A DNA stretch of 64,000 nucleotides from Eledone cirrhosa (lineage: Eukaryota), in NCBI GenBank assembly GCA_964016885.1, contig OZ024742.1, positions 251,844,001 to 251,908,000 on the forward strand, given 5' to 3'. The notes below the pieces were generated by a model. The model worked only from the letters and a program-made list of their open reading frames with translations, was not told the origin of the DNA and searched no databases. The position numbers and the translations under genes were made by a program. This document shows positions 6,996 through 42,200 of this stretch, piece by piece. Position 1 is the stretch's first letter. The number at the start of each line of letters is the position of its first letter.

Positions 6996-7173
6996 AATAT
7001 GGTTTTATAAATATAGTTTCCATTTATTAATATCGTATATCTACTCCAAATATTTGTTGAGTGCTTTATATCAGTTATAAAAATATTTGCTTGTTGTATC
7101 CCAACAATTTAAATAAAACTTTTGCATATACTCTGCTCCTGTATTGTTGAGCGCTTTACATTATAACTGAAAA

Positions 7174-12449: not shown

Positions 12450-15400
12450 ATGCCAAAGATAAAGACAAATTCACCTCCTGGACGAGAATGCGAGCACTCC
12501 TCATTGTTTCGACCGCGGACGGCTAACATAACCCCATCGCCCCCCGCCCCCCACCGCCCCCAACCCCCAAACGCAATCCAAAACTTCAGAGTTGGTACCA
12601 TAAATGTAGGCACCCTAAAGGGTCGCGCTAACGAGGTTGTAGAAATGCTTGAACGTAAGGAGGTCGATGTTTGTTGTATTCAAGAGACCAGGTGGAGGGG
12701 TGGGTCTGCTAGGTTCATTGACGGTAAAAAACGATGTTATAAGCTTTTCTGGGTGGGAAACGACGATGGGCTGGGTGGAGTAGGAATCATGGTAGCAGAA
12801 AAGTGGGCAGATAAGATAATAGACGTAAATAGAGTGACCGACAGAATAATTAAAATACGACTTGTCCTCAATAGAACTACGGTGACAGTAATATCTGCGT
12901 ACGCACCCCAATCCGGACTGCCCGGCACTATAAAAGACAGATTCTATGAGACACTGATGCTAACTACCTCCCAAATATCCGACAGTGACTATATAATTAT
13001 CGCAGGCGACCTAAATGGTCACGTTGGACAACATTGTGACGGCTACGACGAAATCCATGGAGGCTATGGGTTTGGTACTAGAAATGAGGAAGGCTCCAGA
13101 ATCCTGGAATTCTGTGATGCAAATAACCTAACTATCTGTAACACTAACTTCAAAAAACGTGACAATCACTTGATCACCTATAGATCCGGGGAACACACAA
13201 GCCAGGTAGATTATATCCTTACCAGAAGACGTGACAGAGTGTCTGTTGTAAACACTAAATCCCTCCCCCATGAAGAATGCACCTCCCAACATAGACTGAT
13301 AATTAGCGACCTCATAGTCAGGACGAGACGTACTCGACAACAGAAGAGGACTATCCTCAGGAGGAAAATATGGAAGCTAAAGGACCCCACAGCCAGGAAT
13401 AAATTTCAAAGCATATTACTTGATGCTTTCGACAGTAAGGAAGAACATTTAGAGTCGGACAATATAGAGGGAGAGTGGGACTTTCTGAAAGCAAACCTGC
13501 TGTTGGCGACAGACGAAGTCTGTGGCTGGAGCAGGCCTGTAGGCAGGAGGAGAGTAACATGGTGGTGGAACAGTAAGGTCGAGGGGTCAATTAAGGCCAA
13601 AAAGCAGGCTTGGAAAGTATGGCGGGATGGGGGAAGTAGAGAGGACTATCAAGTGGCCAGGAGGGAAGCTAGGAGACAAGTGTACTTAGCAAGAAGGGAA
13701 GCTGAGGAAAGAAAGTTCAAGCATGTTCTACAACGCGATGACCAAAAACGTGAGGTGTTCAGGATTGCTAGGCAATGCGTCAAGGAAAACCGTGATATTG
13801 TCGGGGAGAAGTGTGTACTAAACGACGATGGCACACTTGCCATCACCGACGCTGATAAGAAGGTAGCTTGGAAGTGTCACTATGAAAGGCTACTAAATGA
13901 TGAGAATAAATGGGAGAAATACAGTCTCCCCCATATCGACCCAATAGAGGGACCAGCAGTGTTAGTCGAGGGGAGTATAATAAGTAAGGCAATCAAGGAT
14001 ATGAAGACGGGTAAGGCGGCTGGGCCTTCGGAAATAGTTGCTGAGATGCTGAAGGCATCTGGCACGGTGGGACACACCATGGTCACCCGCATAGTTAACC
14101 AAGTCGTACAGAATGGGGTTGTTCCGAAGGACTGGCATAGCAGCATCATCGTTAACTGTTATAAGGGTAAAGGAGACGCCCTAGATAGGAGTAACTATAG
14201 AGGCATTAAATTAATCGACCAGGTCATGAAGGTCACGGAAAAAGTAATAGCGCAACTAATCAGAGAGAGAATTGACCTAGATGAAATGCAGTTCGGGTTT
14301 GTGTCAGGCAAAAGTACCACAGACGCTCTTTTCATAGTACGACAACTACAGGAGAAGTACCTAGCTAAAGGTAAACCCCTCTACTTAGCTTTTGTCGACT
14401 TGGAGAAAGCCTTCGACAGAGTCCCCCGCTCCATTATCTGGTGGGCTCTTAGAAAACTAGGCGTTGACGAATGGCTTGTGAGGGCTATACAAGCCATGTA
14501 TAAAGAAACAGTCAGCAAGGTTAGAATTAACAACGAATATAGTGAAGAGTTTAGCGTAAAAGTTGGCGTCCATCAGGGCTCTGTTCTCAGCCCACTACTA
14601 TTTATTATTGCCCTTCAGGCTATAACAGAGGAGTTCAAGACAGGCTGCCCATGGGAACTCCTATACGCAGACGACCTGACACTCATAGCGGAATCAATGG
14701 CCGAGCTAGAGAAGAAATTCCAAACATGGAAGCACGGCCTAGAGTCAAAAGGACTTAAAATTAACCTGGCTAAGACCAAAGTACTAGTTTGTAGGAAAGA
14801 AAACAAGGCGGCGGTCCCTTCTGGGAAATGGTCGTGCTCGGTGTGTAGGAAAGGCGTAGGTAGAAACTCCATTTTATGTCCTAAATGCAAAGTATGGGTG
14901 CATAAAAGATGTAGTGGGATCACAGGTAAGCTAACTAAGAACATAGATTTTACATGTGGCCGGTGCTCTGGTGCAATAAGTAGCAGCAAGTGCCCACAAG
15001 CTACTAGCTCCTTCAATTGCGCAGAGGGTTCTATAGAAATAGTGGACAGCTTCCGTTACCTGGGCGATAAAATCAGCAGTGGGGGAGGGTGCTCTGAAAG
15101 TACTGTAGCTAGAGTCAGAACTGGTTGGAAAAAGTTCAGAGAGCTTATACCACTATTAGCTGCTAAAGGGTTCTCACTAAAAATGAAAGGCAGGTTGTAC
15201 GATGCCTGCATACGAACAGCAATGCTGCATGGCAGTGAGACCTGGGCATTGTGTGCAGAGGATATACGCAGACTAGAGAGGAACGAAGCTTGCATGCTCC
15301 GCTGGATGTGTAACAGTAATATACGTGAACGGCAAAGCATAAACGAACTAAGGAAAAAATTAGAGATAAGAGGGATCAGATGTTGTTTACTCGAGAGAAG

Positions 15401-15620
15401 GCTACGTTGGTATGGACACGTGATGCGCATGAAAGTCGATAGCTGTATAACAAAGTGCAGGGCAATAAAGATAGACGGTAGTCACGGAATAGGCAGACCT
15501 AGAAAAACCTGGGACGAGCTGATAAACTCCGACATCACACACTTACACCTCTCCAAGACAATGTCACTGGACCGAGACCTTTGGCGGTACTCAGTAACAG
15601 AGAAGACCCGCCTTACCTAA
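12450..15620 (+). CDS. RTE LINE ORF: AP endonuclease + reverse transcriptase + PHD-like zinc finger (1056 aa, intact)
   Basis: GTINVGTL, IQETRW, SAYAPQ, GDLNGHVG, SQVDYIL, SQHR (APE); YRGIKL, QFGF, FVDLEKAFDRV, GVHQGSVLSP, LYADD, FRYLG (RT); RRLRWYGHV, GRPRKTW (RTE C-terminus). Confidence 0.95.
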   Translation: MPKIKTNSPPGRECEHSSLFRPRTANITPSPPAPHRPQPPNAIQNFRVGTINVGTLKGRANEVVEMLERKEVDVCCIQETRWRGGSARFIDGKKRCYKLFWVGNDDGLGGVGIMVAEKWADKIIDVNRVTDRIIKIRLVLNRTTVTVISAYAPQSGLPGTIKDRFYETLMLTTSQISDSDYIIIAGDLNGHVGQHCDGYDEIHGGYGFGTRNEEGSRILEFCDANNLTICNTNFKKRDNHLITYRSGEHTSQVDYILTRRRDRVSVVNTKSLPHEECTSQHRLIISDLIVRTRRTRQQKRTILRRKIWKLKDPTARNKFQSILLDAFDSKEEHLESDNIEGEWDFLKANLLLATDEVCGWSRPVGRRRVTWWWNSKVEGSIKAKKQAWKVWRDGGSREDYQVARREARRQVYLARREAEERKFKHVLQRDDQKREVFRIARQCVKENRDIVGEKCVLNDDGTLAITDADKKVAWKCHYERLLNDENKWEKYSLPHIDPIEGPAVLVEGSIISKAIKDMKTGKAAGPSEIVAEMLKASGTVGHTMVTRIVNQVVQNGVVPKDWHSSIIVNCYKGKGDALDRSNYRGIKLIDQVMKVTEKVIAQLIRERIDLDEMQFGFVSGKSTTDALFIVRQLQEKYLAKGKPLYLAFVDLEKAFDRVPRSIIWWALRKLGVDEWLVRAIQAMYKETVSKVRINNEYSEEFSVKVGVHQGSVLSPLLFIIALQAITEEFKTGCPWELLYADDLTLIAESMAELEKKFQTWKHGLESKGLKINLAKTKVLVCRKENKAAVPSGKWSCSVCRKGVGRNSILCPKCKVWVHKRCSGITGKLTKNIDFTCGRCSGAISSSKCPQATSSFNCAEGSIEIVDSFRYLGDKISSGGGCSESTVARVRTGWKKFRELIPLLAAKGFSLKMKGRLYDACIRTAMLHGSETWALCAEDIRRLERNEACMLRWMCNSNIRERQSINELRKKLEIRGIRCCLLERRLRWYGHVMRMKVDSCITKCRAIKIDGSHGIGRPRKTWDELINSDITHLHLSKTMSLDRDLWRYSVTEKTRLT

Positions 15621-16410: not shown

Positions 16411-19400
16411 TTCGGTTATTTGTGTCAATTTTCATGATTAAGTAAGACAAGAGTTTTCTTTTGTAATTAAGGCTCATTCGGATTTTAATTTACTCTTTGT
16501 ACTTGAAACAAAAGGTACGCTTCCTTGAGACTAACAATATCATTTTCAATATTTCACAACCAGCAATTTCTAACAGATTACTGAGTTAAGTTATAGATTT
16601 GACACTGTATAATTTATCATTTCAAGCTTGATGTTCATACATTAAGTGAAGTCATAACTTTTACAATATTATGCTTAAATGTATCTAAAGGATGGTTTAT
16701 ACATCAAAGACTTAAAATTATTCTATTTTTTCGCATTGATTAGACTACGTTTCTGACATAATTTAGTTATTAACTTACATACCCTGTACATTTTGAACGT
16801 TCTACTGTTACATGTACTTCAAATACATTTTACAATTAATCTTTATTTTTACATTCAATTGTGTTATATCATGTCTACTTTACACATTTTGTTTTGATGC
16901 CTCATGGAAAAAAAAACAGTTGCCTCAGCAGATTGTCGACCGGTGTGGTTAACGAAAAGCAGCGTCGAGCTAATGAAACTGAGGAGCAGAGGACAACAAG
17001 GTATCCATATTAGCTGCCTACAACGCAAGACTCAATACTTCGCATTCATCACATCGATACTCAGTAGAAAAACTTGCAGCCCGTATGGCAAAAAATGCAC
17101 AAACCACTGCTGCTTCATGATCAAATGAGTCTACAGAAGAACGTACTATTCGGTTAGCACTGTATGCTGCCACGACTGCTGCCTCAAGAGCTGCGGAGAC
17201 ACCTAAACAGAGTGCAACTCGAAGAAAACGCAATGTTGTCACGACTGCTGCCTCAAGAGCTGCGGAGACACCTGAACAACGCATACGTTGCCAGGCTTCC
17301 AATTGTGCTTATCAGACTGCTGCGATAGCTTCTGAAACATTGGTTGAAAGAACTACTCAACTACAAACAATTGCGCATCATAAAGCTGTTCTGCTTGGTG
17401 CATCAAAGCCTACGAGGAATAGATGGGTTTTTAAAGACTTTCATTATGACCCCTCTGAAAATTATGCTGACCACAAAGATGTTGCCATTGATTGTATGTC
17501 CAAAATCTGTCTACACTAAATGTAAAGCACTAACTTGGCCGGGAGAGCCTGTTGGTCTATGCTGCTCAAATGGAAACGTTCGTCTGCCCAACAGCCCTGA
17601 AACTCTACAGCCTTTAAAGTCCCTTCTGCTTGGTGAGCATCCATATTCTCAAAATTTCATGAACCGAATACGGGCATACAATTCTGCATTTCAAATGACA
17701 AGTTTTGGTCATAAGCCCATATCTTATGGAAACTTTAATCCCACTTTTACCATTCAGGGACAGGCGTACCATTTAATCGGTTCTCTTCTACCAACAGATG
17801 CTTATCATCATACTTTTCTTCAGATATACTTCATGGGACCAGAGAGAGAGCAAATTGTACGTTGGGCTGCTGTTGCTCCAGGCACATACACGGCTGTTCT
17901 TAGACCTCTTCAGGAAATGCTTAATGAGCACAACCGGTATATCAACCAATTTAAAACGGCTATTCAACGACGCCGGGCAGACAATGCCAACCAACTTTAA
18001 GGTTGTTATTAGAAGTGACAGGACTCCTGTTGGGGAACGTCGCCGCTGTTACAACCGACCCAAAAGAGAGGAGGTTGCTGTTTTGCTTTGTAATACCAAT
18101 GCAACTCTTTCCAAAAGAGATATCATCCTAGAGTGGCAGGACTCACGTGTTAAGAGGATCAATGAATTAAATCCAGCCTATGATGCCCTTCAATACCCCT
18201 TACTCTTTCCCTATGGAGAGGATGGATACAGTCCTGATATCCCTACCATTGTACCTACAACACACCAAACAGCACAGCCTCCAAAAATGGTTTCCCAGAT
18301 GAACTTCTACAGTTACAGATTGATGGTTAGAATGAACAACTTCAACAGTCTTCACAGAGCAGGGGATCTTCTGAATCAGTATTATGTGGATATGTATGCT
18401 AAGGTAGGATTTACTCCCCTTTGAGTCATGTGTACCTATAATTTTTATTAAAATCTTTGCATAACCATCCTATTCCTTACCCTTGCAGATTAACTCAGAA
18501 CGACTTCTTTGGATTGGCCATAATCAAAAGCAGCTCCGTGCAATGAATATGCCAAGGTTCGAGATGAGGTTAATAATGTAACTGCTTCTGAGGTTGGTAT
18601 TCGAATCATCCTGCCATCGTCATATACAGGCGGCCCGAGGTATATGCATGAAAAGATGCAGGATGCTCTCACATAGGTTAGTCTTTACAACTGCCCTGAC
18701 CTTTTCATAAAGTTCACATGCAACCCCAAATGGGAGGACATCCAAATGAGCTTACTTCCGGGCCAACAACCAGCAGATCGCGATGACATCACTACTCGCG
18801 TTTTTCATCTTAAAGTTCGTAAAATAATTGATTTGTTAAAATGTGGTGAAATTTTCGGGCCGATCCAATGTTTTATGTATACTGTTGAATGGCAAAAACG
18901 TGGTCTACCTCATGCCCACATCTTACTCTGGCTACAAAGCAAACTTCGACCTTCTGACGTGGGCACAGTCATAAGTGCAGAATTTCCAAATCCCAATGAA
19001 GGTCCCCAGTTGTACGAAATCATTCGAAAAAGTATGGTTCATGGGCCATGTCGGCACTTTAATTCTACGTCTTCATCCATGGCAAACGGAAAATGCACTA
19101 AGAAATATCCACGAAAGCTTTTGGCTGAGACGATCACAGATAATGATGGTTACCCATCATATCACAGAAGAACTCCTGGACATGGTGGTTTCACAGCAAC
19201 AATCAAACATGGATCTAACCGAGAATTTACAATTGACAATCAATGGGTTGTTCCACATAACAAGATGCTATGCAAGACATTTAATGCGCATATTAACGTT
19301 GAATATTGTAACTCAGTTAAATCTATACATTACGTTTGCAAATACATCAATAAGGGATCCGATAGAGCCATCTTTCAAGTGGCACAAACAGGAACAGCAG

Positions 19401-21040
19401 CTGCACCAACAGATGAGGTAGAACTGTTTCAAATAGGGCATTATATCTCAATCAATGAGGCCGTTTGGAGAACGTTTGGTTTCCCTATACACGAGCGATT
19501 CCCCCCTGTTCAACATCTCAGTGTTCACTTAGAGAACAAGCAGGGAGTTTACTTCACTGAAGAAAACTTACGTCAACAGGTTCTTGCCCCACGTAGGACA
19601 ACTTTGACTGCATTTTTCAAACTCTGTACGGTTGACTCCTCACAAAAACTCTTCGGTATGTTGATGTTCTTCATTATTATTCTTGGAACCACTCAACTTG
19701 CTTATGGCAAAGAAGAAAACAGGGCCGACATATCGATTCAGATCCTGCCATTTTTGAAAGTGACACAATAGGACGCGTCTATACTGTTCATCCTTTGAAC
19801 TTCGAATGCTTCCATCTTTGACTGCTGCTTCAAGTTGTATGTGGACCAAAATCCTTTGCATCCCTTCGCACAGTGGACGGTCAATTATGCAAGACATTCA
19901 AGGACGCCTGCTTTAAACGGGGAATCATCGATATGGACAACCATTATGAGAGTACACTTGAGGATGTGTCTCTCCGTCAAAGCTTCGGCATCTATTCGCC
20001 ATTATGCTGGTTTTCTGCAACTTTGTTAACACGCCTTTGTTGTGTTATAAATACAGGTACCACATGTGCCACGATATATGGCTTCAAACCTGTCAAGCTA
20101 CCAAAAATTCCACCACTGCTTTTACCCCCTCTATGTATAATGCTGGTCTAATTATCTTGGAGGACTTAGTTGTGGCAATTGGAGGCATACTGCCTTCCTT
20201 CTCCAGATAGAAACCAAGAGCAAACTTTTAATCGACCTCTCCTTAGAGAAACTAGCTACGACAAAACCAAGCTTCGACAATACGTAGCTCTCAACGAGCC
20301 TCTCCTTAATCCAGATCAAGAATCTGCATACAAATCCGTTCTAAACAAGGTATACAGCAATACTGGCAGGATTATCTTCATAGATTCGTATGTGTGCGAG
20401 TACAGGCATTGCATGGGTTCTGTATGTGCGTGCATGTTTTTTTGTGTATGTGCTTGTTGTATTTGCATACCCATGGCGGGTGTTTTCACGTATGCATGTG
20501 TATGTTTGGATGCGTGCATGTATATATTTAATTTTTGTTGATTTCAATTACCTCTGTAATTTATTTACATTATTCTTAACTCTGAAGCCGAGAATCATTC
20601 GGTTTCCTAAATAGAATTTTAGTCTACGACTTCAGTTATACGATAAACAATGGTTTTGTCTTTGCGTGTAATTGTTCTCATCGCTCCACATAACGACGTA
20701 TTATCTTCGTTTTTTCTGTTCATTGCCAGAGAACATCTCCACGAACCACCTAATAGAATATTAGTCTACGACTTCATTTAAACCATATACATGGTTTTGT
20801 CTTTGCGTGTAATTGTTTTCACCGCTCCAAATAATGACGTATTATCTTTGTTTTTTTTTCGTTCTTTGCCAGGGAACGTTCCCACGAACAAAAGTATCGT
20901 CTTCCTGTCTTCCTTCGGTTGCAACGGTTTTCGAAATATTTACTTCTGCGTTCACAGATTGATTTTTTTTAGTTTCATAAGGTCCTGTTAAGGGTGAAAG
21001 CAGTGATTCTTTGCTTACACTTTAATCTGTTATTTTAATA
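16408..21040 (+). mobile_element. Helitron, decayed Rep-helicase pseudogene truncated at the start of the PIF1 helicase
   Basis: Across frameshifted ORFs 17344-20390: FQMTSFG, YHLIGSLLP, YDALQYPLLFPYGEDG, ILPSSYTGGPRYM, FTCNPKW, VEWQKRGLPHAHILLW (HUH), MVHGPC, WVVPHN, HINVE, YVCKYINKG, LNPDQ...IIFID. Imperfect hairpin at ~20990-21023. Element ends are approximate. Confidence 0.88.
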
Positions 21041-21048: not shown

Positions 21049-24000
21049 TCATCATCATCATCATCATCATCATCATTTTACGTCCGCTTTTCCCTGCTTG
21101 CAAGGGTGGGACGGGTCTTATTCAGCACAGCATCTCTCCACTCGTCACGGTCCCTCGTCATCTCCACCGTGAGATTCAATGATCTGAGGTCTGCTCTCAC
21201 CACCTCCGCCCATGTTTTTCGTGGTCTACCTCTACCACGTCTTCCTTCAACTGGCATTTCCTGGCACTTCTTCACCCATCGGTCATCCTCCATGCGCATC
21301 ACATGTCCATACCACCTCAATCTCCTCTCCCGTACACTACATTCTATCCCTCTCAGACACAGTTTCTCTCTCAACACATTTATGCTGGGTCGTTCACGCA
21401 CATTTACACTGCACATCCAACGGAGCATGCTTGCCTCATTTCTCTCCAGCCGTCGCATATCCTCTGCGGTTGCTGCCCATGTCTCACTACCATGCAGCAT
21501 CGCGCTCCTCACACAGGCATCATACAACCGGCCTTTCGTACGCAGGGAGAAACCCGTCTTCGTCAACAGAGGAAGCAGCTCCCTAAACTTCTTCCAACCC
21601 ATCCTTATTCTAGATACTATGGCCTCGGAACACCCTCCTCCCATGCTAATCTGATCTCCTAGGTACCGGAAGCTATCCACCACTTCTATAGTGCCCTCTC
21701 GCATTTGAAAAATGTGTCTATCAGTGCGACTTCTACTGTCTAATTTCCCTGTACATCTACTGCATACATATTTCTCCCTACCTGTTAGTTTGCCTGCTAT
21801 CCCGCTACATCTCTTGTGTACCCAGGACCTGCATTGTGTGCATTTTATAGAATTTATGCCAGTTCCTTTTCTGCATATCGAACATGGCCATTTCCCTGAC
21901 GGAATCAGGGTTTTGTCCTCTTTTCTACTCATCAACACTTTTGTCTTAGCTAGATTTACTCTCACCAGATGACAGATCGGGGTACCCTATCAAAGGCCTT
22001 CTCTAGGTCAACAAAGGCTAAGTATAGTGGCTTATTCTTCTCTAAGAACCTCTCTTGCATTTGTCTCACCAAGAAGAGGGCATCTGTTGTACTCTTCCCA
22101 GGCACAAAACCAAACTGCATCTCATCTAGTTTGACCCTTTCTCTAATTAGTTGTGCTAAAATCCTTTCTGCCACTTTCATAACCTGATCTATCAGTTTTA
22201 TACCCCTATAATTGCTCCTCTCCAAAGCATCCCCTTTACCTTTGTAGCAATTTATGAGAATACTGCTGCACCAGTCTTTGGGTATGACACCACCATATAT
22301 AGCCTGATTGATGATGCGTGCAACCAGTTTAGTGCCTACGTCCCCTGATGCCTTCAGCATCTCAGCAACTATTCCCGATGGTCCGGCCGCCTTACCATTT
22401 TTCATTTCCCTAATCGCCTCTTGGACCCTATATTCGTCAATCTCAATAGCTGGTCCCTCTGTCGGATCTACCAAGGGTAATTTCTCTCTCTCCCATTCGT
22501 TCTCCACATTCATCAGTCTCTCATAATGACATTTCCAGGCTTCCTTTTTTTTCTGGTCATTCGTGACACTAAGTACACCGGCATCATCCCGGACACATTT
22601 ATCTCCAACAACATCCTGATTTGCATTGACACACTGCCTTGCAATGTGGAACACCGCACGCCTCTGATCTTCCCGTTGCAGAACATTGGCAAACCTCCTA
22701 CTCTCCACCTCCCTGCGTGCTAAGTACACCTGACGTCTAGCTTCTCTCTTAGTGGCTGTATATTCTTCCCTACTCCCACCCTTTTTCCAAGCCTTCCATG
22801 CTAGTCTTTTGTCTCTAATGGCCTTAACTACTGTGCTGTTCCACCACCAGGTCACTCTCTGTCTGGTTGGAGCTCTGCTCCAGCCACAAGTTTCATCAGT
22901 AGCCTGCAGCAAGTTGTCACGTGAGAACTTCCAGTTATTATCTATGTCATACGTCTCTAAATCGTCTTCTTTTTCGTAATATACATCTTGAAGGGCTTTC
23001 CTAAATTTCTATTTTAGTGAAAGGTCTTTTAGCTTCCAGACCTTTCTTCTCCACACCTTCCTATATGTCTCATTCCATCTCTTGCTTACTGAGATATCAC
23101 TAACAACTAACCTATGCTGTGGGGTACATTCTTCCCCAGGGTATGCCTTGGTATTAGACACTATCTGCCTGTCCCGCTGCCTAACTAGCAGGAAGTCAAT
23201 CTGGCTTATGTGCTCACCAGATTTGTAGGTTATTAGGTGATTGGCAGGTTTCTGGAAGTTTGTGTTGCAAATAGTCAATGTACTCGCATCACAAAATTCA
23301 AGAAGTCTCACTCCTTCTTCATTTCTTGAACCGTAACCGTGCCCACCATGTACCCCAGTGTAACCATCCTGGAGCTGTCCAACATGACCATTGAAGTCTC
23401 CTGCTAGCATAACGATGTCTCCGTCCTCTGTCATTGTGGTTGTTTGCAAAAGTTGCTCATAAAAGCAGTCTTTCTCATCTTTGCCTAGGCCTGCTTGGGG
23501 AGCATAGACCGAGATGATTGTCAGTAGTCTCCTACCTACAACTAATCTAAGCTTAATTATTCGATTACTAACTCGAACTACCTCTATTGTCTTATTGATC
23601 CATTTCTCAGCCAGGAAAATGCCTACTCCCCTAACCCATCATCCTTACCTACCCAGAATAGCTTATAGCTAAGACGCTTGCCTACTAGTCTCGCAGAGGC
23701 ACCTCTCCATGTCACCTCTTGCACGCAGCACACATCCACCTGCCTTCTCTCCAGCATCTAAGCTATTTCAGCAGATCTACCTCTGAGAGTGCCAACATTA
23801 AGTGTTGCAACTCTGAGATGCGACGTCTTCATATTTTCCTATGCTGTTTTGTTGCTGTGCTGATAGGCTTTTTGGCATTGATACACTGGTTGGATGCCCT
23901 TCCTAACACCAGCGCCACTTTACAGCATGGACTGGGTGCTTTTATTTGTGCCATCAGCACTAGAGAGGATGTCTTACTAGACTCAAGGCCCCTCTCTACC

Positions 24001-24202: not shown

Positions 24203-24240
<38 letters not shown>

Positions 24241-24243
<3 letters not shown>

Positions 24244-26340
24244 TGGAATAAATGCTCTGAAATAGCGATATATATGTGAATATAGACATAGAATATTCGA
24301 AAATATTCTGTATGTTTATAATAAACATTTTGAAGACCTAATCGCTATAGAATAGAATACGTCACGTATTACAATTAGATTCTCGATAAAAGCAAGGGAA
24401 GTAATCTACGCGTTTCATTCTCGTTAGAAATCATCAGGACTACATATCCAGTGCTTTTATCGAGAATGACACAGCTAGAGACTTATAGAATACTTAGCTG
24501 TGTACAGGAACTGGTTTGAAAGAGCGGTTGCCGGTCCGGCAGAAATTAGAAATTGGAATAAATGCTCTGAAATAGCGATATATATGTGAATATAGACATA
24601 GAATATTCGAAAATATTCTGTATGTTTATAATAAACATTTTGAAGACCTAATCGCTATAGAATAGAATACGTCACGTATTACAATTAGATTCTCGATAAA
24701 AGCAAGGGAAGTAATCTACGCGTTTCATTCTCGTTAGAAATCATCAGGACTACATATCCAGTGCTTTTATCGAGAATGACACAGCTAGAGACTTATAGAA
24801 TACTTAGCTGTGTACAGGAACTGGTTTGAAAGAGCGGTTGCCGGTCCGGCAGAAATTAGAAATTGGAATAAATGCTCTGAAATAGCGATATATATGTGAA
24901 TATAGACATAGAATATTCGAAAATATTCTGTATGTTTATAATAAACATTTTGAAGACCTAATCGCTATAGAATAGAATACGTCACGTATTACAATTAGAT
25001 TCTCGATAAAAGCAAGGGAAGTAATCTACGCGTTTCATTCTCGTTAGAAATCATCAGGACTACATATCCAGTGCTTTTATCGAGAATGACACAGCTAGAG
25101 ACTTATAGAATACTTAGCTGTGTACAGGAACTGGTTTGAAAGAGCGGTTGCCGGTCCGGCAGAAATTAGAAATTGGAATAAATGCTCTGAAATAGCGATA
25201 TATATGTGAATATAGACATAGAATATTCGAAAATATTCTGTATGTTTATAATAAACATTTTGAAGACCTAATCGCTATAGAATAGAATACGTCACGTATT
25301 ACAATTAGATTCTCGATAAAAGCAAGGGAAGTAATCTACGCGTTTCATTCTCGTTAGAAATCATCAGGACTACATATCCAGTGCTTTTATCGAGAATGAC
25401 ACAGCTAGAGACTTATAGAATACTTAGCTGTGTACAGGAACTGGTTTGAAAGAGCGGTTGCCGGTCCGGCAGAAATTAGAAATTGGAATAAATGCTCTGA
25501 AATAGCGATATATATGTGAATATAGACATAGAATATTCGAAAATATTCTGTATGTTTATAATAAACATTTTGAAGACCTAATCGCTATAGAATAGAATAC
25601 GTCACGTATTACAATTAGATTCTCGATAAAAGCAAGGGAAGTAATCTACGCGTTTCATTCTCGTTAGAAATCATCAGGACTACATATCCAGTGCTTTTAT
25701 CGAGAATGACACAGCTAGAGACTTATAGAATACTTAGCTGTGTACAGGAACTGGTTTGAAAGAGCGGTTGCCGGTCCGGCAGAAATTAGAAATTGGAATA
25801 AATGCTCTGAAATAGCGATATATATGTGAATATAGACATAGAATATTCGAAAATATTCTGTATGTTTATAATAAACATTTTGAAGACCTAATCGCTATAG
25901 AATAGAATACGTCACGTATTACAATTAGATTCTCGATAAAAGCAAGGGAAGTAATCTACGCGTTTCATTCTCGTTAGAAATCATCAGGACTACATATCCA
26001 GTGCTTTTATCGAGAATGACACAGCTAGAGACTTATAGAATACTTAGCTGTGTACAGGAACTGGTTTGAAAGAGCGGTTGCCGGTCCGGCAGAAATTAGA
26101 AATTGGAATAAATGCTCTGAAATAGCGATATATATGTGAATATAGACATAGAATATTCGAAAATATTCTGTATGTTTATAATAAACATTTTGAAGACCTA
26201 ATCGCTATAGAATAGAATACGTCACGTATTACAATTAGATTCTCGATAAAAGCAAGGGAAGTAATCTACGCGTTTCATTCTCGTTAGAAATCATCAGGAC
26301 TACATATCCAGTGCTTTTATCGAGAATGACACAGCTAGAG
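24241..26340 (-). mobile_element. Retrozyme-like tandem array, left arm: ~6.8 x 310-bp hammerhead-containing monomers
   Basis: aattggaataaatgctctga recurs at 24241, 24551, 24861, 25171, 25481, 25791 and 26101. Minus-strand hammerhead at 24401-24443 and every 310 nt (7 copies). Confidence 0.88.
24401..24443 (-). ncRNA. Minimal type-I hammerhead ribozyme (representative left-arm copy, sense to the host gene)
   Basis: Reverse complement of 26485-26527. Confidence 0.88.
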
Positions 26341-28200
26341 ACATATATATCGCTATTTCAGAGCATTTATTCCAATTTCTAATTTCTGCCGGACCGGCAA
26401 CCGCTCTTTCAAACCAGTTCCTGTACACAGCTAAGTATTCTATAAGTCTCTAGCTGTGTCATTCTCGATAAAAGCACTGGATATGTAGTCCTGATGATTT
26501 CTAACGAGAATGAAACGCGTAGATTACTTCCCTTGCTTTTATCGAGAATCTAATTGTAATACGTGACGTATTCTATTCTATAGCGATTAGGTCTTCAAAA
26601 TGTTTATTATAAACATACAGAATATTTTCGAATATTCTATGTCTATATTCACATATATATCGCTATTTCAGAGCATTTATTCCAATTTCTAATTTCTGCC
26701 GGACCGGCAACCGCTCTTTCAAACCAGTTCCTGTACACAGCTAAGTATTCTATAAGTCTCTAGCTGTGTCATTCTCGATAAAAGCACTGGATATGTAGTC
26801 CTGATGATTTCTAACGAGAATGAAACGCGTAGATTACTTCCCTTGCTTTTATCGAGAATCTAATTGTAATACGTGACGTATTCTATTCTATAGCGATTAG
26901 GTCTTCAAAATGTTTATTATAAACATACAGAATATTTTCGAATATTCTATGTCTATATTCACATATATATCGCTATTTCAGAGCATTTATTCCAATTTCT
27001 AATTTCTGCCGGACCGGCAACCGCTCTTTCAAACCAGTTCCTGTACACAGCTAAGTATTCTATAAGTCTCTAGCTGTGTCATTCTCGATAAAAGCACTGG
27101 ATATGTAGTCCTGATGATTTCTAACGAGAATGAAACGCGTAGATTACTTCCCTTGCTTTTATCGAGAATCTAATTGTAATACGTGACGTATTCTATTCTA
27201 TAGCGATTAGGTCTTCAAAATGTTTATTATAAACATACAGAATATTTTCGAATATTCTATGTCTATATTCACATATATATCGCTATTTCAGAGCATTTAT
27301 TCCAATTTCTAATTTCTGCCGGACCGGCAACCGCTCTTTCAAACCAGTTCCTGTACACAGCTAAGTATTCTATAAGTCTCTAGCTGTGTCATTCTCGATA
27401 AAAGCACTGGATATGTAGTCCTGATGATTTCTAACGAGAATGAAACGCGTAGATTACTTCCCTTGCTTTTATCGAGAATCTAATTGTAATACGTGACGTA
27501 TTCTATTCTATAGCGATTAGGTCTTCAAAATGTTTATTATAAACATACAGAATATTTTCGAATATTCTATGTCTATATTCACATATATATCGCTATTTCA
27601 GAGCATTTATTCCAATTTCTAATTTCTGCCGGACCGGCAACCGCTCTTTCAAACCAGTTCCTGTACACAGCTAAGTATTCTATAAGTCTCTAGCTGTGTC
27701 ATTCTCGATAAAAGCACTGGATATGTAGTCCTGATGATTTCTAACGAGAATGAAACGCGTAGATTACTTCCCTTGCTTTTATCGAGAATCTAATTGTAAT
27801 ACGTGACGTATTCTATTCTATAGCGATTAGGTCTTCAAAATGTTTATTATAAACATACAGAATATTTTCGAATATTCTATGTCTATATTCACATATATAT
27901 CGCTATTTCAGAGCATTTATTCCAATTTCTAATTTCTGCCGGACCGGCAACCGCTCTTTCAAACCAGTTCCTGTACACAGCTAAGTATTCTATAAGTCTC
28001 TAGCTGTGTCATTCTCGATAAAAGCACTGGATATGTAGTCCTGATGATTTCTAACGAGAATGAAACGCGTAGATTACTTCCCTTGCTTTTATCGAGAATC
28101 TAATTGTAATACGTGACGTATTCTATTCTATAGCGATTAGGTCTTCAAAATGTTTATTATAAACATACAGAATATTTTCGAATATTCTATGTCTATATTC
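26341..28200 (+). mobile_element. Retrozyme-like tandem array, right arm: 6.0 x 310-bp monomers, inverted relative to the left arm
   Basis: acatatatatcgctatttcagagc recurs at 26341, 26651, 26961, 27271, 27581 and 27891. It is the reverse complement of the left-arm monomer and runs into (TA)n at 28201. Confidence 0.88.
26485..26527 (+). ncRNA. Minimal type-I hammerhead ribozyme (representative copy; repeats at 26795, 27105, 27415, 27725, 28035)
   Basis: gtagtc-CTGATGA-tttct aacg agaat-GAAA-cgcg-TA^-gattac. Stem I gtagtc/gattac, palindromic stem III ACGCGT, predicted cleavage after GUA at 26521. Enclosed by attctcgataaaagca/tgcttttatcgagaat. Confidence 0.9.
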
Positions 28201-28210
28201 ATATATATAT

Positions 28211-28292
<82 letters not shown>

Positions 28293-28298
<6 letters not shown>

Positions 28299-31200
28299 TG
28301 ATGCTAACTACCTCCCAAATATCCGACAGTGACTATATAATTATCGCAGGCGACCTAAATGGTCACGTTGCACAACATTGTGACGGCTACGACGAAATCC
28401 ATGGAGGCTATGGGTTTGGTACTAGAAATGAGGAAGGCTCCAGAATCCTGGAATTCTGTGATGCAAATAACCTAACTATCTGTAACACTAACTTCAAAAA
28501 ACGTGACAATCACTTGATCACCTATAGATCCGGGGAACACACAAGCCAGGTAGATTATATCCTTACCAGAAGACGTGACAGAGTGTCTGTTGTAAACACT
28601 AAATCCCTCCCCCATGAAGAATGCACCTCCCAACATAGACTGATAATTAGCGACCTCATAGTCAGGACGAGACGTACTCGACAGCAGAAGAGGACTATCC
28701 TCAGGAGAAAAATATGGAAGCTAAAGGACCCCACAGCCAGGAATAAATTTCAAAGCATATTACTTGATGCTTTCGACAGTAAGGAAGAACATTTAGAGTC
28801 GGACAATATAGAGGGAGAGTGGGAATTTCTGAAAGCAAACCTGCTGTTGGCGACAGACGAAGTCTGTGGCTGGAGCAGGCCTGTAGGCAGGAGGAGAGTA
28901 ACATGGTGGTGGAACAGTAAGGTGGAGGGGTCAATTAAGGCCAAAAAGCAGGCTTGGAAAGTATGGCGGGATGGGGGAAGTAGAGAAGACTATCAAGTGG
29001 CCAGGAGGGAAGCTAGGAGACAAGTGTACTTAGCAAGAAGGGAAGCTGAGGAAAGAAAGTTCAAGCATGTTCTACAACGCGATGACCAAAAACGTGAGGT
29101 GTTCAGGATTGCTAGGCAATGCGTCAAGGAAAACCGTGATATTGTCGGGGAGAAGTGTGTACTAAACGACGATGGCACACTTGCCATCACCGACGCTGAT
29201 AAGAAGGTAGCTTGGAAGTGTCACTATGAAAGGCTACTAAATGAGGAGAATAAATGGGAGAAAGACAGTCTCCCCCATATCGACCCAATAGAGGGACCAG
29301 CAGTGTTAGTCGAGGGGAGTATAATAAGTAAGGCAATCAAGGATATGAAGACGGGTAAGGCGGCTGGGCCTTCGGAAATAGTTGCTGAGATGCTGAAGGC
29401 ATCTGGCACGGTGGGACACACCATGGTCACCCGCATAGTTAACCAAGTCGTACAGAATGGGGTTGTTCCGAAGGACTGGCATAGCAGCATCATCGTTAAC
29501 TGTTATAAGGGTAAAGGAGACGCCCTAGATAGGAGTAACTATAGAGGCATTAAATTAATCGACCAGGTCATGAAGGTCACGGAAAAAGTAATAGCGCAAC
29601 TAATCAGAGAGAGAATCGACCTAGATGAAATGCAGTTCGGGTTTGTGTCAGGCGAAAGTACCACAGACGCTCTTTTCATAGTACGACAACTACAGGAGAA
29701 GTACCTAGCTAAAGGTAAACCCCTCTACTTAGCTTTTGTCGACTTGGAGAAAGCCTTCGACAGAGTCCCCCGCTCCATTATCTGGTGGGCTCTTAGAAAA
29801 CTAGGCGTTGACGAATGGCTTGTGAGGGCTATACAAGCCATGTATAAAGAAACAGTCAGCAAGGTTAGAATTAACAACGAATATAGTGAAGAGTTTAGCG
29901 TAAAAGTTGGCGTCCATCAGGGCTCTGTTCTCAGCCCCCTACTATTTATTATTGCCCTTCAGGCTATAACAGAGGAGTTCAAGACCGGCTGCCCATGGGA
30001 ACTCCTATACGCAGACGACCTGACACTCATAGCGGAATCAATGACCGAGCTAGAGAAGAAATTCCAAACATGGAAGCACAGCCTAGAATCAAAAGGCCTT
30101 AAAATTAACCTGGCTAAGACCAAAGTTCTAGTTTGTAGGAAAGAAAATAAGGCGGCGGTCCCTTCTGGGAAATGGTCGTGCTCGGTGTGTAGGAAAGGCG
30201 TAGGTAGAAACTCCATTTTATGTCCTAAATGCAAAGTATGGGTGTATAAAAGATGTGGTGGGATCACAGGTAAGCTAACTAAGAACATAGATTTTACATG
30301 TGGCCGGTGCTCTGGTGCAATAAGTAGCAGCAAGTGCCCACAAAATACTAGCTCTTTCAATTGCGCAGAGGGTTCTATAGAAATAGTGGACAGTTTCCGT
30401 TACCTGGGTGATAAAATCAGCAGTGGGGGAGGGTGCTCTGAAAGTACAGTATCTAGAGTCAGAACTGGTTGGAAAAAGTTCAGAGAGCTTATACCACTAT
30501 TAGCTGCTAAAGGGTTCTCCCTAAAAATGAAAGGCAGGTTGTACGATGCCTGCATACGAACAGCAATGTTGCATGGCAGTGAGACCTGGGCATTGTGTGC
30601 AGAGGATATACGCAGACTAGAGAGGAACGAAGCTTGCATGCTCCGCTGGATGTGTAACAGTAATATACGTGAACGGCAAAGCATAAACGAACTAAGGAAA
30701 AAATTAGAAATAAGAGGGATCAGATGTTGTTTACTCGAGAGAAGGCTACGTTGGTATGGACACGTGATGCGCATGAAAGTCGATAGCTGTATAACAAAGT
30801 GCAGGGCAATAAAGATAGACGGTAGCCACGGAATAGGCAGACCTAGAAAAACCTGGGACGAGCTGATAAACTCCGACCTCACACACTTACACCTCTCCAA
30901 GACAATGTCACTGGACCGAGACCTTTGGCGGTACTCAGTAACAGAGAAGACCCGCCTTACCTAAATACATAGTAAAACCTACTACAGCCAGTAGGCATCT
31001 CTAACAAAATACCCCCCGTCCCCCCCGTCCCACCACCCCCACCCCATCCACACCACCCCGTTCTATGTAAAGTTATGTTGGTGCCACACCATCCAGGCCG
31101 AAACAAATGAGATTGTGTAGGTGTCACGACAAAAAAACACACAGTCCACGCTGTAATGTGGCCGTGTAGGCAACACGGTAAAAACCTCCCAGACCCACAC

Positions 31201-36141: not shown

Positions 36142-38816
36142 CCGTATATACTCGTGTATAGGTCGCCCCGGCAGATAGGTCGCATACCCACTTTTCATTT
36201 AACAAATAGGCTATTTGCCATTGACTCGCAGATAGGTCGCACTGAAATTTGGACCGTCAAACTACTATTTTTTATGATAATTGAAACTAATAATCTGTTA
36301 GCTTTTCATTACTTCACCGTTGCGATATATATGCCAAACCATGTTTTATTTATAAAATAAACATTAACGTCATCGGAATTTTGTCAATTCGAGATTACTG
36401 CGAGATAAAGCCTTTAAGCGTGAAAATTAACTCTTAATATAGTGAAACAACTTGAAATAACACGTCTTTTTTAACGTTGAAAGTATAACAGATTTTTAGC
36501 GTATCAACATGGCTTCCCAAAGTAGCGAATACCGACTTTGAAGGTTTTACATGCGACGACATTCGAAATGAAAAAGAAACACAAGATAATATTAGTGATT
36601 TATCTTCAAATGAATCAGACGTATTTATTTCTGACGATGATAGTTACTTTGAAAGTGAAAGCAAAGATCTGACGGACACACCATTGAAAATATTACAGCA
36701 ACGTGGTTGAAAGATACAACACCAATACATGTTCACACCTGTTAATGAACTTATATATTGGGAACACTCTGTTACATAAATTTACACCATACATTGTGTA
36801 AGAGTAAATTGCAAATATTATTTTGACTGGTGAAAAGGTTTTAGACATTTTTTTCAATGAAAATATTTGCCTGGGATGTAGAGAAAGACTAAAACCTTGT
36901 ACTAATTATATCTGCATTTTTAATTAATTCACCTGTTCGGAAAACTGCTAGAATTGATGGAAGTCAACATTTAGGTCATTATTGAATTTTTTTGCAACAA
37001 ATCTAACAGTTAAGGCAGATAAAGTTTAAATTTTTGTGTTTATCCATAAAGTTATTACTTTTACACCTGTTAATTAAATAGTTTTTTCATTTCATCATCT
37101 GTAACTGTGCATTCGTTATAATAGTCATTCAATTCATCTTCACATTCTTCAATATCATCTCCCTCATCACTCTCCGCATTTTCTGTCTTTTCACCAACTA
37201 AATCCTCATATAACACATCATCTTCAGTCCCATCCATCGCATTTGATATGCCTCATTTTTTGAAAGCCTTCATTATTAACTCTTCGGGGATACTTTCCCA
37301 AGCCTTCTTCACCCACTCCACCACTAATGTCAAGCCAGCTCTTTTCAATGATCCACCTTTGGTAATTTCTTTTTCACCTGATATCATCCAAGAAGTCCAG
37401 AGTTTACGGATATAAGTCTTGAAGGGCTTATTTATTGCTACATCATTTATTGCAACCACCAGGAATCAGTGCTTGTCTTGTTTTACAATCCTTCAGCTTA
37501 GCCTTTACAGACTCACAGCAGTGAGATCGAAACATATCCCAAACTAGCAAACTTTGTGGCTTCAGTAATGCCCCTGTCCTTTTCATCCTCACTTCATCAA
37601 GCCATAACTTTGTGAAGGTATATCCAAAGGGCTGGATGGACGAGAACTTAACAATCACATCGCTTGGAAAATTCTCTTTCAGGATAATTTTCCTTTTGAA
37701 AATAACCATAGGGCGAAGTTTTTTTCCATCAGCCTGGCATGCTAGAACAACAGTAAAATGTTGTTTTTCATGACCTGTGGTTTTGACTGTAACAATTTTG
37801 TTACCTACACTATTCACAGTTGTGTTGCCTGGCATGTCAAAGTACATGGGTGTTTCATCCATGTTGGCTATATTCTCCATGGCAAAATCAAACATTTTTC
37901 TTTCCTTTAACACAAATTTTACAAAATTGTGTACTTTGTCATCAATATCTTTTGGCAGCTTTTGTGCAATATGTGTCTTTTGAAGAAGAGTCAGTCCAAA
38001 CCTATTTATAAACCTGGTGCACCACCCTGCTGACGATTTAAATTGGGATAAGTGGTACTTTGGTGCAAGTTGAGGGGCTTTCGTTCTTATAGAAAGTCTT
38101 GTAACAATGTGTCCATTTTCCCTATCTAAAACCCAATCATTTAGCTCTTTTTCAAGATTTTGATATGGTGATACTCCAAACCTTGCTGCTCTCTTTGATT
38201 TAGGCATTTCTCCCAGCTTGTCTTTTTGTTTCCTCCAACCTCTCACCACCTTTTCTGACACTAAAAACTCCCTTTCTGCTGATCTATTTCCAAATTCTTC
38301 TGCATAACCAACCACCTTTAACTTGAAAACTGTTTGATAACTTTTTTCTTACCGGAATTCATATTTCTCAGTGAATTATAAAAAAAATTTCAACTATCAA
38401 CTTTTCTCACTTGCTAATTTTGAAAAGAAATGGCACATGCAATAATCTGTTTCCTGTTAAAGTAAATACGTCACAATACGTGTTCATAGCAACGCTAAGA
38501 CAATGGAATCACATTTTAAATACCGGGTATGCATTTCTATGGATTTTAATGATGGATGGTTCGGTCAGATAGAAAAAAACGTAAACACTACAAAGTTTTA
38601 GTAAAAAATTTAAAATCTAGAAATATATGTATAAGAAGGTAGATATATGAAATTATTATGTTAAATAATAAAAAATATTAACAAAGTTATTTTTATAAAT
38701 ACCCATCGTCTATGAAAAATCATTGGTCAGTCTGATGTCGATCGGATAGGTCGCATCCCAAAAATTTATACTTATTTATCGTTAAAAAAGTGCAATCTAT
38801 ACATGAGTATATACAG
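36142..38816 (-). mobile_element. pogo/Tigger-type (Tc1/mariner superfamily) DNA transposon with TIRs and TA target duplication
   Basis: Left TA|ccgtatatactcgtgtataggtcgc and right gcaatctatacatgagtatatacag|TA form an imperfect 25-bp TIR. The flanks rejoin into an RTE coding frame. Confidence 0.88.
37150..38362 (-). pseudogene. pogo-family transposase (Brinker/CENP-B HTH + DDE_1), frameshifted
   Basis: MNSGKKKSYQTVFKLKVV...FKSSAGWCTRF...NMDETP...KTTGHEK.HFTVVLAC.ADG.KL...LVWDMFRSH...IPGGC, then a frameshift into DVAINKPFK...WVKKAWESIP. 3' limit approximate. Confidence 0.85.
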
Positions 38817-39255: not shown

Positions 39256-42200
39256 ATCATCATCATCATTTTACGTCCGCTTTTCCCTGCTTGCAAGGGT
39301 GGGACAGGTCTTATTCAGCAGAGCATCTCTCCACTCGTCACGGTCCTTCGTCATCTCCACCGTGAGCTTCAATGATCTGAGGTCTGTTCTCACCACCTCC
39401 GCCCATGTTTTTCGTAGTCTACCTCTACCACGTCTTCCTTCAACTGGCATTTCCTGGCACTTCTTCACCCATCGGTCATCCTCCATGCGCATCACATGTC
39501 CATACCACCTCAGTCTCCTCTCCCGTACACTACATTCTATCCCTCTCAGACAGAGTTTCTCTCTCAACACATTTATGCTGGGTCGTTCACGCACATTTAC
39601 ACTGCACATCCAACGGAGCATGCTTGCCTCATTTCTCTCCAGCCGTCGCATATCCTCTGCAGTTGCTGCCCATGTCTCACTACCATGCAGCATCGCGCTC
39701 CTCACACAGGTATCATACAACCGGCCTTTCATATGCAGGGAGAAACCCTTCTTCATCAACAGAGGAAGCAGCTCCCTAAACTTCTTCCGACCCGTCCTTA
39801 TTCTAGATACTATCGCCTCGGAACACCCTCCTCCCATGCTAATCTGATCTCCTAGGTACCAGAAGCTATCCACCACTTCTATAGCGCCCTCCTGCATCTG
39901 AAAAATGTGTCTATCAATGCGACTTCTACTGTCTAATTTCCCTGTACATCTACTGCATACATATTTCTCCCTACCTGTTAGTTTGCCTGCTATCCCGCTA
40001 CATCTCTTGTGTACCCAGGATCTGCATTGTGTGCATTTTATAGAATTTATGCCAGTTCCTTTTCTGCATATCGAACATGGCCATTTCCCTGACGGAATCA
40101 GGGTTTTGTCCTCTTTTCTACTCATCAACACTTTTGTCTTAGCTAGGTTCACTCTCAGTCCTCTTGCTTCCAACTGCTGTTTCCATAGCCAGAATTTATT
40201 CTCTACCTCCTCTACTGATTCTGCTATAAGAACCAGATCGTCAGCATAGAGAAGTTCCCATGGACAGCCAGTCTTAAACTCCTCTGTTATGGCTTGGAGG
40301 ACTATAATGAACAAGAGCGGGCTGAGGACCGAACCTTGATGTACTCCTACTTGTATCTGGAATTCCTCACTAAACTCCATTCCTACCCTGACTTTACTGA
40401 GAGTACCTCTGTACAAAGTTTGCACTGTCCTCACAAGCCATTCCTCAACACCTAGCTTCCTTAGGGACCACCAGATGACAGATCGGGGTACCCTATCAAA
40501 GGCCTTCTCTAGGTCAACAAAGGCTAAGTATAGTGGCTTATTTTTCTCTAAGAACCTCTCTTGCAATTGTCTCACCAAGAAGAGGGCATCTGTTGTACTC
40601 TTCCCAGGCACAAAACCAAACTGCATCTCATCTAGTTTGACCCTTTCTATAATTAGTTGTGCTAATATCCTTTCTGCCACTTTCATAACCTGATCCATCA
40701 GTTTTATACCCCTATAATTGCTCCTCTCCAGAGCATCCCCTTTACTTTTGTAGCAATTTATGAGAATACTGCTGCACCAGTCTTTGGGTATGACACCACC
40801 ATATATAGCCTGATTGATGATGCGTGCAACCAGTTTAGTGCCTACGTCCCCTGATGCCTTCAGCATCTCAGCAACTATTCCCGATGGTCCAGCAGCCTTA
40901 CCATTTTTCATTTCGCTAATCGCCTCTTGGACCCTATATTCGTCAATCTCAATAGCTGGTCCCTCTGTCAGATCTACTAAGGGTAATTTCTCTCTCTCCC
41001 ATTCGTTCTCCACATTCTCTCATAATGATATTTCCAGGCCTCCTTTTTCTGATCATTCGTGACACTTAGTACACTGGCATCATCCCGGACACATTTATCT
41101 CCAACAACATCCTGATTTGCATTGACACACTACCTTGCAATGTGGAACACCGCACGCCTCTGATCTTCCCGTCGCAGAACATTGGCAAACCTCCTACTCT
41201 CTGCCTCCCTGCGTGCTAAGTACACCTGACGTCTAGCTTCTCTCTTAGTGGCTGTATATTCTTCCCTACTCCCACCCTTTTTCCAAGCCTTCCATGCTAG
41301 TCTTTTGTCTCTAATGGCCTTAACTACTGTGCTGTTCCACCACCAGGTCACTCTCTGTCTGGTTGGAGCTCTGCTCCAGCCACAAGTTTCATCAGTAGCC
41401 TGCAGCAAGTTGTCACGTAAGAAATTCCAGCTATTATCTATGTCATACGTCTCTAAATCGTCTTCTTTTTCGTCATATACATCTTGAAGGGCTTTCCTAA
41501 ATTTGTATTTTAGTGAAAGGTCTTTTAGCTTCCAGAATTTTCTTCTCCACACCTTCCTGTATGTCTCATTACATCTCTTGCTTATTGAGATATCACTAAC
41601 GACTAACCTATGCTGTGGGGTACATTCTTCCCCAGGGTATGCCTTGGTATTAGACACTATCTGCCTGTCCCGCTGCCTAACTAGTAAGAAGTCAATCTGG
41701 CTTATGAGCTCACCAGATTTGTAGGTTATTAGGTGATTGGCAGGTTTCTGGAAGTTTGTGTTGCAAATAGTCAATGTACCTGCATCACAAAATTCAAGAA
41801 GTCTCACTCCTTCATTTCTTGAGCCGTAACCGTGCCCACCATGTACCCCAGTGTAACCATCCTGGAGCTGTCCAACATGACCATTGAAGTCTCTTGCTAG
41901 CATAACGATGTCTCCGTCCTCTGTCATTGCGGTTGTTTGTAAAAATTGCTCGTAAAAGCAGTCTTTCTCATCTTTGCCTAGGCCTGCTTGGGGAGCATAG
42001 GCCGAGATGATTGTCAGTAGTCTCCTGCCTACAACTAATCTAAGCTTAATTATTCGATTACTAACTCGAACTACCTCTATTGTCTTATTGATCCATTTCT
42101 CAGCCAGGAAAATGCCTACTCCCCTAACCCATCATCCTTACCTACCCAGAATAGCTTATAGCTAAGACATTTGCCTACGACTAGTCTCGCAGAGGCACCT

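Follow-up and report, generated by a model that had tools for sequence, protein, structure and literature searches.

A tandem hammerhead repeat between TA microsatellites

Within the window (the whole 64,000-nt stretch of DNA that we analyzed, from an AT-rich host genome of 3.0 Gb), a 310-nt repeat forms two back-to-back (head-to-head) arrays, with zero mismatches among the copies and (TA)n on both outer sides. The left arm (24240 to 26342, minus strand) contains 6.78 identical units reading leftwards, and the right arm (26341 to 28201, plus strand) contains 6.0 identical units. They meet head-to-head at 26341 to 26342, where both arms are 5' truncated (phases 235 and 130) and share 2 nt of microhomology. 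In this numbering, phase 1 is position 26522, the first base past the predicted cleavage site, and the 310-nt monomer that self-cleavage at two successive sites is predicted to release spans 26522 to 26831 (plus strand). The left arm has its 3' end at phase 167, in a region that we call site B, and the right arm at phase 130, in site A; the (TA)n target microsatellite occupies 24206 to 24239 on the left side and 28202 to 28293 on the right side.

The unit reads from its sequence as a type I hammerhead at 26485 to 26527 (plus strand), with stem I formed by 26485 to 26490 paired with 26522 to 26527, core motifs CUGAUGA (26491 to 26497) and GAAA (26512 to 26515), and a stem II at 26498 to 26511 that has a U.U at its base. 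Cleavage is predicted after GUA at 26521. Stem III (ACGCGU, 26515 to 26520) is palindromic, as the initial annotation had pointed out, and is predicted to pair between two hammerheads. There are 13 copies of this hammerhead in the window, each with an intact core; variants within the family fall on N7 or in loops or keep the pair. A search against Rfam returned nothing at gathering score in the window and 6 weak hits on two units, none of them to a hammerhead family, and we found no hammerhead core on the antisense strand of the unit.

The longest ATG frame on the repeated unit is 30 aa, so that the 310-nt unit is non-coding, and the GC content of the region is 33 to 35%; retrozymes are recognized as non-coding tandem units of 150 to 450 bp with a GC content below 50%. 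Two core variants of the unit have 4219 and 3942 exact matches in the genome. The 61 insertions that we mapped are dispersed and consist of unit sequence, the non-unit DNA within them amounting to short junction inserts plus one insert of 272 nt, in keeping with the lack of an LTR, PBS, and PPT that marks the class. On the forward strand, the end patterns occur at 690 places for site A and 747 places for site B; reverse-strand counts are inflated by repeated listing, and doubling the forward count gives an estimate of about 1,400 to 1,500 insertions of this family in the genome. Judged by these features and by the fold described below, which together cover all those of the class that can be tested here, the repeat belongs to a known class of element, the non-LTR retrozymes with a type I hammerhead, in agreement with the earlier retrozyme reading.

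We rejected the flanking LINEs as part of the retrozyme because they differ from each other and because (TA)n separates them from the arms. Numerous LINE copies, with endonuclease and reverse transcriptase domains, lie at window positions 12420 to 15620, 21078 to 23638, 28295 to 30964, 39271 to 41019, 55541 to 57367, and 60135 to 62000; several have a PHD-finger match after the reverse transcriptase, and two border the retrozyme divergently. The window also contains a Helitron-like fragment (18677 to 19771) and a Tc5/DDE transposase fragment (37443 to 38348). Further type I hammerheads with an AT-palindromic stem III are found at 2533 (plus), 16114 (minus), 58244 (minus), and 58379 (plus), the last two as a close divergent pair. 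A separate hammerhead repeat of about 430 nt (49553 to 50230), with a stem III of ACTAGT and an octamer-like ATTTGCAT, is likewise arranged as two divergent arms, whose 3' ends differ and lie about 45 nt from each other.

Fold of the unit and its covariation with a sister family

The circular 310-nt unit folds at -67.8 kcal/mol, compared to -48.3 ± 4.9 kcal/mol for 300 circular dinucleotide shuffles (z = -4.0), and beats all 300. The antisense strand folds equally well (z = -4.7), so energy alone cannot name the functional strand. The stability relative to shuffled controls that the initial annotation had asked for is thus present, but its description of the monomer as almost wholly base-paired does not hold, since the paired fraction of the circle (0.60 in the MFE structure and 0.59 in the ensemble) is close to that of the shuffles (0.56 ± 0.04; maximum, 0.67).

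Hammerhead viroids and satellite RNAs are small, structured circles and offer a precedent for dimeric cleavage. The 310-nt unit differs from them in being genome-encoded in thousands of copies, 59% paired, branched rather than rod-like, and equipped with a ribozyme in one polarity only, and we rejected the proposed analogy to a viroid or viroid-like replicon on these grounds. Pattern searches of viral and metagenome contigs gave no match to the unit, and there is no sign of RNA-to-RNA replication.

All of the inverted repeats named in the initial annotation are present in the sequence at 26341 to 26650, and their standing in the fold varies. A 16-bp helix enclosing the ribozyme (26461 to 26476 with 26534 to 26549; pair probability, 0.5 to 1.0, mostly 1.0), the acacagcta/tagctgtgt hairpin (26425 to 26459; 0.9 to 1.0), and the UUCG hairpin (26619 to 26638; 0.65 to 0.97), all on the plus strand, are well supported, and stem I is firm in the circular ensemble. 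In the tgccgg, aatacgt, and tgtttat hairpins, the innermost pair has a probability of 0, since a loop of 1 nt cannot form, and each of the three thus has one pair fewer than originally listed; the tgtttat/ataaaca hairpin (26601 to 26615, plus strand) is also weak, at about 0.44. The long-range atcgctat/atagcgat helix is moderate (0.5 to 0.6), but the unit junction that it was said to span is merely the start of the right arm. In the monomer bounded by predicted cleavage, this helix lies in the interior, and it is stem I together with the 16-bp helix that bridges the two ends; with its ends clamped in this way, the linear monomer folds at -72.5 kcal/mol. An AGAGC/GCUCU helix (26360 to 26407, plus strand) surrounds a U-rich site B loop and a 5-bp UGCCG hairpin (26387 to 26399) and is nearly invariant in both of the families described below.

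We found a sister family (family B) with a collinear 318-nt unit (309 to 324 nt) that is 60 to 63% identical to that of the window's family (family A) and has 1798 matches to one anchor. A sequence-only alignment was made of 4 family A units and 8 family B units, the latter taken from 14 extracted stretches after omission of one without a ribozyme, two deletion variants, and near-duplicates. Across this alignment, 21 of 57 pairs are changed on both sides, a count that 0 of 500 shuffles reach and slid controls keep to 4 or fewer, although this is mostly one deep comparison (A versus B) in which the cells are not independent, the structure is drawn from family A, and related sequences can beat the shuffles used. 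Compared singly to the window unit, each of the 8 family B units has 13 to 17 of 50 pairs doubly changed with pairing kept and 0 to 2 broken, and one-sided changes keep pairing 2 to 5 times and lose it 0 to 3 times; the 50-pair count omits a 7-pair hairpin, acacagcta, which is stable in the window's family but is not maintained in its sister, where 46% of cells are paired.

These exchanges reach most parts of the fold. In the 16-bp helix, 8 of 15 tested pairs are exchanged on both sides in the alignment, and the UUCG hairpin keeps its stem through two compensatory exchanges while its loop becomes GCAA in 7 of 8 sister units; the tgtttat hairpin has one compensatory pair. The catalytic core pair C3-G8 becomes U3-A8, also in 7 of 8 sister units, and core covariation of the U3-A8 type has been reported in Schistosoma PLE hammerheads (PMC4209133). 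G.U pairs on the ribozyme strand outnumber A.C by 13 to 2, which names RNA, and the ribozyme strand, as the selected form. Within family A (44 loci and 384 full units, with haplotypes differing by 3.0 sites on average), 5 of 22 locus-fixed substitutions fall at firmly paired positions and keep the pair in 5 of 5 cases, which with transition bias would happen by chance about 1 time in 30 by our own estimate; the commonest other locus-fixed changes affect the loop of stem II or the tolerant N7 or convert the U.U at the stem II base to A-U. The compensatory changes relative to the sister family support the earlier proposal that selection acts on the RNA structure of the unit.

The two halves of the unit have diverged to different degrees. 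One half (26580 to 26732, phases 59 to 211, plus strand) is 74 to 76% identical to the sister family, and the ribozyme half is 45 to 53% identical between the families with its shape retained. Because both 3' end sites lie in the conserved half (site A at about 26651 and site B at about 26686, plus strand), we infer that this half may be a domain for enzyme recognition and priming. A 163-nt tandem unit (L169:1400-2014) corresponds to the sister family's priming half only, lacks a hammerhead, and terminates in (TA)n at site B.

A monomeric stem III would consist of one A-U pair closing a 4-nt loop (+6.0 kcal/mol), and the ACGCGU self-duplex is calculated at -7.5 kcal/mol. Among the 12 aligned units of both families, stem III is a perfect palindrome in 8 and one pair short of it in 4; its length and sequence vary across families, and palindromy persists. 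The combination of a palindromic stem III and a long helix enclosing the hammerhead is seen again in less closely related repeats of the genome, among them a 466-nt tandem repeat (L131:2030-2990, also in L064 and L125) that has an octamer-like motif as well. Given the calculated energies and the persistent palindrome, it is plausible that neighboring hammerheads would cleave as dimers through the palindromic stem III. The idea is not new: short palindromic helices III with dimeric activity have been published for metazoan hammerheads (PMC7229834 and PMC4209133), and dimeric action for amphibian retrozymes (PMC7229834).

Insertion footprint and source of the template

Our first mapping covered 51 loci (the window plus L031 to L080), from which we left out L065, since it nearly duplicates L064; we also did not count the third arm of L052, which belongs to L053. 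Two divergent arms make up 43 of the 50 remaining loci, and without exception these 43 combine an end at site A (phases 126 to 139) with an end at site B (phases 163 to 172), with the commonest ends at 130 and 165 and an A-to-B distance of about 35 nt. Fourteen of these 43 loci had been picked since both ends were listed, and 29 had not. Among 11 more insertions, picked by internal variants, 7 of 7 two-armed insertions are A+B and 4 are one-armed. The two-armed total is thus 50 of 50 A+B, 36 of them not picked by both ends, and one-armed insertions number 11 of 61. Arm ends run into an AT repeat in 84 of 86 cases, and in the sister family the 5 loci for which we located both ends are all A+B, at homologous sites.

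The 5' ends, in comparison, are scattered around the unit (80 ends at central junctions; KS P = 0.06), with 1 of 80 near the cleavage site, where about 1.5 would be expected. Of 40 central junctions, 28 are clean and 12 carry inserts, and microhomology of at least 2 nt is present in 19 of the 28 clean junctions versus 18% by chance. The median arm length is about 4 units. The initial annotation had offered dimeric cleavage as the reason for tandem copies; this is at most half the story, since the tandem arms look made during insertion and the sister family is equally tandem though its longer stem III could fold alone.

The retrozyme insertions show the footprint of Penelope-like elements (PLEs), namely, a microsatellite target, an inverted 5' copy, and a 30- to 40-bp tail at one end. 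The PLE "tail" is often present at one end only, and its size matches the A-B offset of about 35 nt (PMC8557442). The tail has been traced to two internal start sites that bound it, and the PLE protein, a predicted dimer, is able to nick both strands and to extend each of them (Frangieh et al. 2024, PMC11167929). In the search listings, abstracts, and open papers that we covered, we found no description of two-armed A+B retrozyme insertions and no earlier report of a strict two-arm A+B rule or of cross-family covariation.

The two arms of an insertion share their majority haplotype at 30 of 31 loci (shuffle mean, 5.7; maximum, 13), and units differ by 0.15 per unit within loci versus 3.0 between loci. 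A haplotype combining 119T>G and 131C>T is present in every full unit checked, in both arms, at two loci and in no other array; another has an extra base 2 nt past the cleavage site (L041 and L047). Such one-haplotype arrays ask for a single-unit bottleneck, which most simply would be a circle. A search for a parent monomer of two variants caught none. We rejected a lone 119T>G unit, which is an independent change, as the parent of the double haplotype, and we also rejected the mosaic 46-unit array described below as the direct source of dispersed 210C>A arrays.

Not every unit can be a lap of one circle, because L067 carries two haplotypes and because repeated variant blocks occur in L050, L053, L054, and a 46-unit arm; L071 is also a mixed array. 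The 46-unit arm (L176 to L178, G000:C1 217.795-217.810 Mb) is paired with a 2-unit arm and is still A+B. It is mosaic, blocks of 5 and of 11 units having been duplicated, and has the appearance of a retrozyme insertion turning into satellite. Since old arrays diverge, as in this mosaic, rather than homogenize, homogeneity appears to be set at insertion.

EN+ and Hydra-type PLEs are abundant in the genome, and PLEs of the Hydra clade insert in (TA)n and have canonical hammerheads (Craig et al. 2021, PMC8557442). One Hydra-type PLE lies in the window (4970 to 9402), with an open 743-aa frame (7171 to 9402, plus strand) containing RWR, DKT, and CxCX5C motifs and with hammerheads at about 6938 and near 5067, the second one inside an inverted partial copy of the terminus (minus strand). 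Pfam gave no match to this element; among the relatives listed for a PLE protein in the window, a single one carries a species name, from Argonauta at 39% identity, which points weakly to a cephalopod host. A profile of both families run over 776 kb of genome DNA turned up further hammerhead repeats, and the priming half was not found in any PLE terminus there; similarity to the 310-nt unit at 30 loci of one Hydra-type family is limited to the AT repeat; and two patterns from a related contig end had 0 and 1 places, the 1 being a sister-family fragment. We therefore place the putative partner enzyme among Hydra-clade PLEs by clade only, since no PLE with the priming half was found. A hammerhead family with 24,219 matches has the same stem II base as the retrozyme, the resemblance being limited to the hammerhead. 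Copies of that family (L111 to L140) have a long stem III, often occur as tiny head-to-head pairs in which about 66 nt separate the short from the long end, and lie upstream of Hydra-type ORFs in L120 and L140.

Proposed mechanism and comparison with known systems

We consider it probable that the element is a protein-free retrozyme whose fold is kept by compensatory changes and which is likely cut from tandem transcripts, circularized at 310 nt, and reverse transcribed into TA microsatellites by a Penelope-like (probably Hydra-clade) enzyme that primes both target strands. In this scheme, an array would be transcribed, adjacent hammerheads would pair via the palindromic stem III and then cut, and stem I and the 16-bp helix would clamp the monomer's two ends for a host ligase. 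The PLE protein, as a predicted dimer, would bind the conserved half and nick both (TA)n strands, with one cDNA beginning at A and the other at B; each cDNA would lap the circle a variable number of times, and the two cDNA ends would join head-to-head. Some long arms may grow later through local block duplication. Rolling-circle reverse transcription and a PLE partnership have already been proposed for retrozymes (PMC7229834 and 10.64898/2026.07.22.740005).

The same retrozyme and PLE twin priming could also operate with an uncleaved linear multimer from a homogeneous parent array as the template, the hammerhead and helices then serving RNA stability or later cutting and no circle being copied. 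We regard this as unlikely, although it agrees with much of the data: uncleaved, unprocessed RNA is the main PLE substrate in vitro, where cleavage is not needed for insertion (PMC11167929), the weak stem III would leave multimers uncut, mixed arrays exist (L067 and L071), and the scattered 5' ends and A+B ends fit it equally. However, it leaves unexplained the fixation of new changes in all units of both arms (30 of 31 loci), because long arrays age into mosaics and not into homogeneity, and it does not account for a catalytic core and 3-8 pair that are kept across 40% divergence.

A self-cleaved linear monomer, held near-circular by stem I and the 16-bp helix while the enzyme jumps repeatedly from its 5' end to its 3' end, would produce the same single-unit bottleneck, and both the clamped fold at -72.5 kcal/mol and the haplotype with an extra base close to the cleavage site (L041 and L047) are in keeping with it. 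We think this template improbable, as 5' truncations are not enriched at the cleavage site and unit junctions lack unit-to-unit scars, save for 2 substituted units in L053. Hardly credible, and already largely refuted, is the view of the repeat as satellite DNA, in which template switching or cruciforms maintain the inverted repeats at the DNA level, unequal exchange makes the arrays, and the inversions come from fold-back repair or faulty assembly. In its favor, the antisense strand is as stable as the sense strand, long arms contain block duplications, and the L045 junction uses the 16-nt helix itself. Against it, the G.U excess, the non-nested C3-G8 to U3-A8 exchange, and the UUCG to GCAA replacement are signatures of RNA, and neither a satellite nor an assembly origin suits dispersed sites at which the 3' ends are fixed at two points, the flanks differ, and the junctions are not mirror images.

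Building on the circular template, a bolder and more doubtful proposal, which we put forward tentatively, is that a dimeric Penelope-type enzyme on one RNA circle runs two simultaneous rolling-circle reverse transcriptions, each subunit with its own start site (A or B) and strand; that the circle is modular, with a sequence-conserved loading half and a shape-conserved ribozyme half; and that the RNA may move between species too. If true, this dimeric two-start reading would explain the PLE "tail" and inverted repeats together and would prove that retrozyme circles are the transposition template. On movement between species, half or more of the unit's words are present in 20 public sequencing runs from 17 studies, and the unit is nearly unchanged in runs X2 to X20, under 17 organism labels besides the possible source; the runs listed include no RNA data set, which has no bearing on expression. 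Of four runs assembled, three have a single haplotype. Run X5 resembles genomic DNA, in that its 559 contigs contain variants and have loose TA ends; runs X2 and X10 each yield one 340-nt self-closing contig, and X19 a partial one, an outcome to be expected whether the source is tandem DNA, a circle, or cross-contamination. These runs do not separate related species from contamination or from transfer between species, and they speak neither for nor against such transfer.

That retrozyme circles are the templates of their own genomic spread has so far been proposed and not demonstrated, and how PLEs make tandem or inverted insertions with a one-sided tail was named an open task by Craig et al. 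(2021; PMC8557442). The family described here is young; its more than a thousand near-identical footprints combine, as a strict rule, one A end and one B end with a single haplotype, and its 310-nt substrate, with working parts mapped by covariation, makes both questions testable in vitro. The element class is already known; the window contributes the covariation, and the unusually direct genomic evidence makes an open mechanism testable.

The 310-nt element has in common with metazoan non-LTR retrozymes a non-coding 150- to 450-bp tandem unit of low GC content with a type I hammerhead per unit, a self-paired predicted circle, and co-occurring PLEs (PMC7229834 and 10.64898/2026.07.22.740005). 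Divergent two-armed insertions, fixed A/B ends, (TA)n targeting, and between-family covariation are not described in the passages that we compared from Cervera and de la Pena (2020) and of Li, Clavereau, and Pollet (2026); in the text of the latter, "inverted" occurs once, in a reference title, and "tail," "priming," and "covariation" are absent. Expression and cleavage have been demonstrated for published retrozymes and are predictions for the 310-nt element. The axolotl HHR_Amex1/2 and newt satellite 2 retrozymes are also similar; they have units of about 330 to 350 nt, a very weak palindromic helix III, and a U.U at the helix II base, and they cleave more as dimers (PMC7229834). The sister family differs from these in its longer stem III, and the 310-nt element in its invertebrate host; among invertebrate retrozymes, those assayed showed efficient cleavage of the monomer (PMC7229834).

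EN+ PLEs of the Hydra clade resemble the element in that they target (TA)n, bear at their 5' end an inverted copy that is 5' truncated, have a 30- to 40-bp one-end tail and two internal start sites, and carry hammerheads in terminal repeats (PMC8557442 and PMC11167929). Their start sites showed no strand difference in vitro (PMC11167929), unlike the one-A-one-B rule found here. The 310-nt element also differs from EN+ PLEs in having no ORF, many-unit arms, and that rule in strict form. In L1 twin priming, two target-primed cDNAs are joined head-to-head by short microhomology. That process uses poly(A) and is occasional, whereas in the 310-nt element two-armed insertion is near-obligate, with fixed internal start sites, multi-unit arms, and (TA)n targets.
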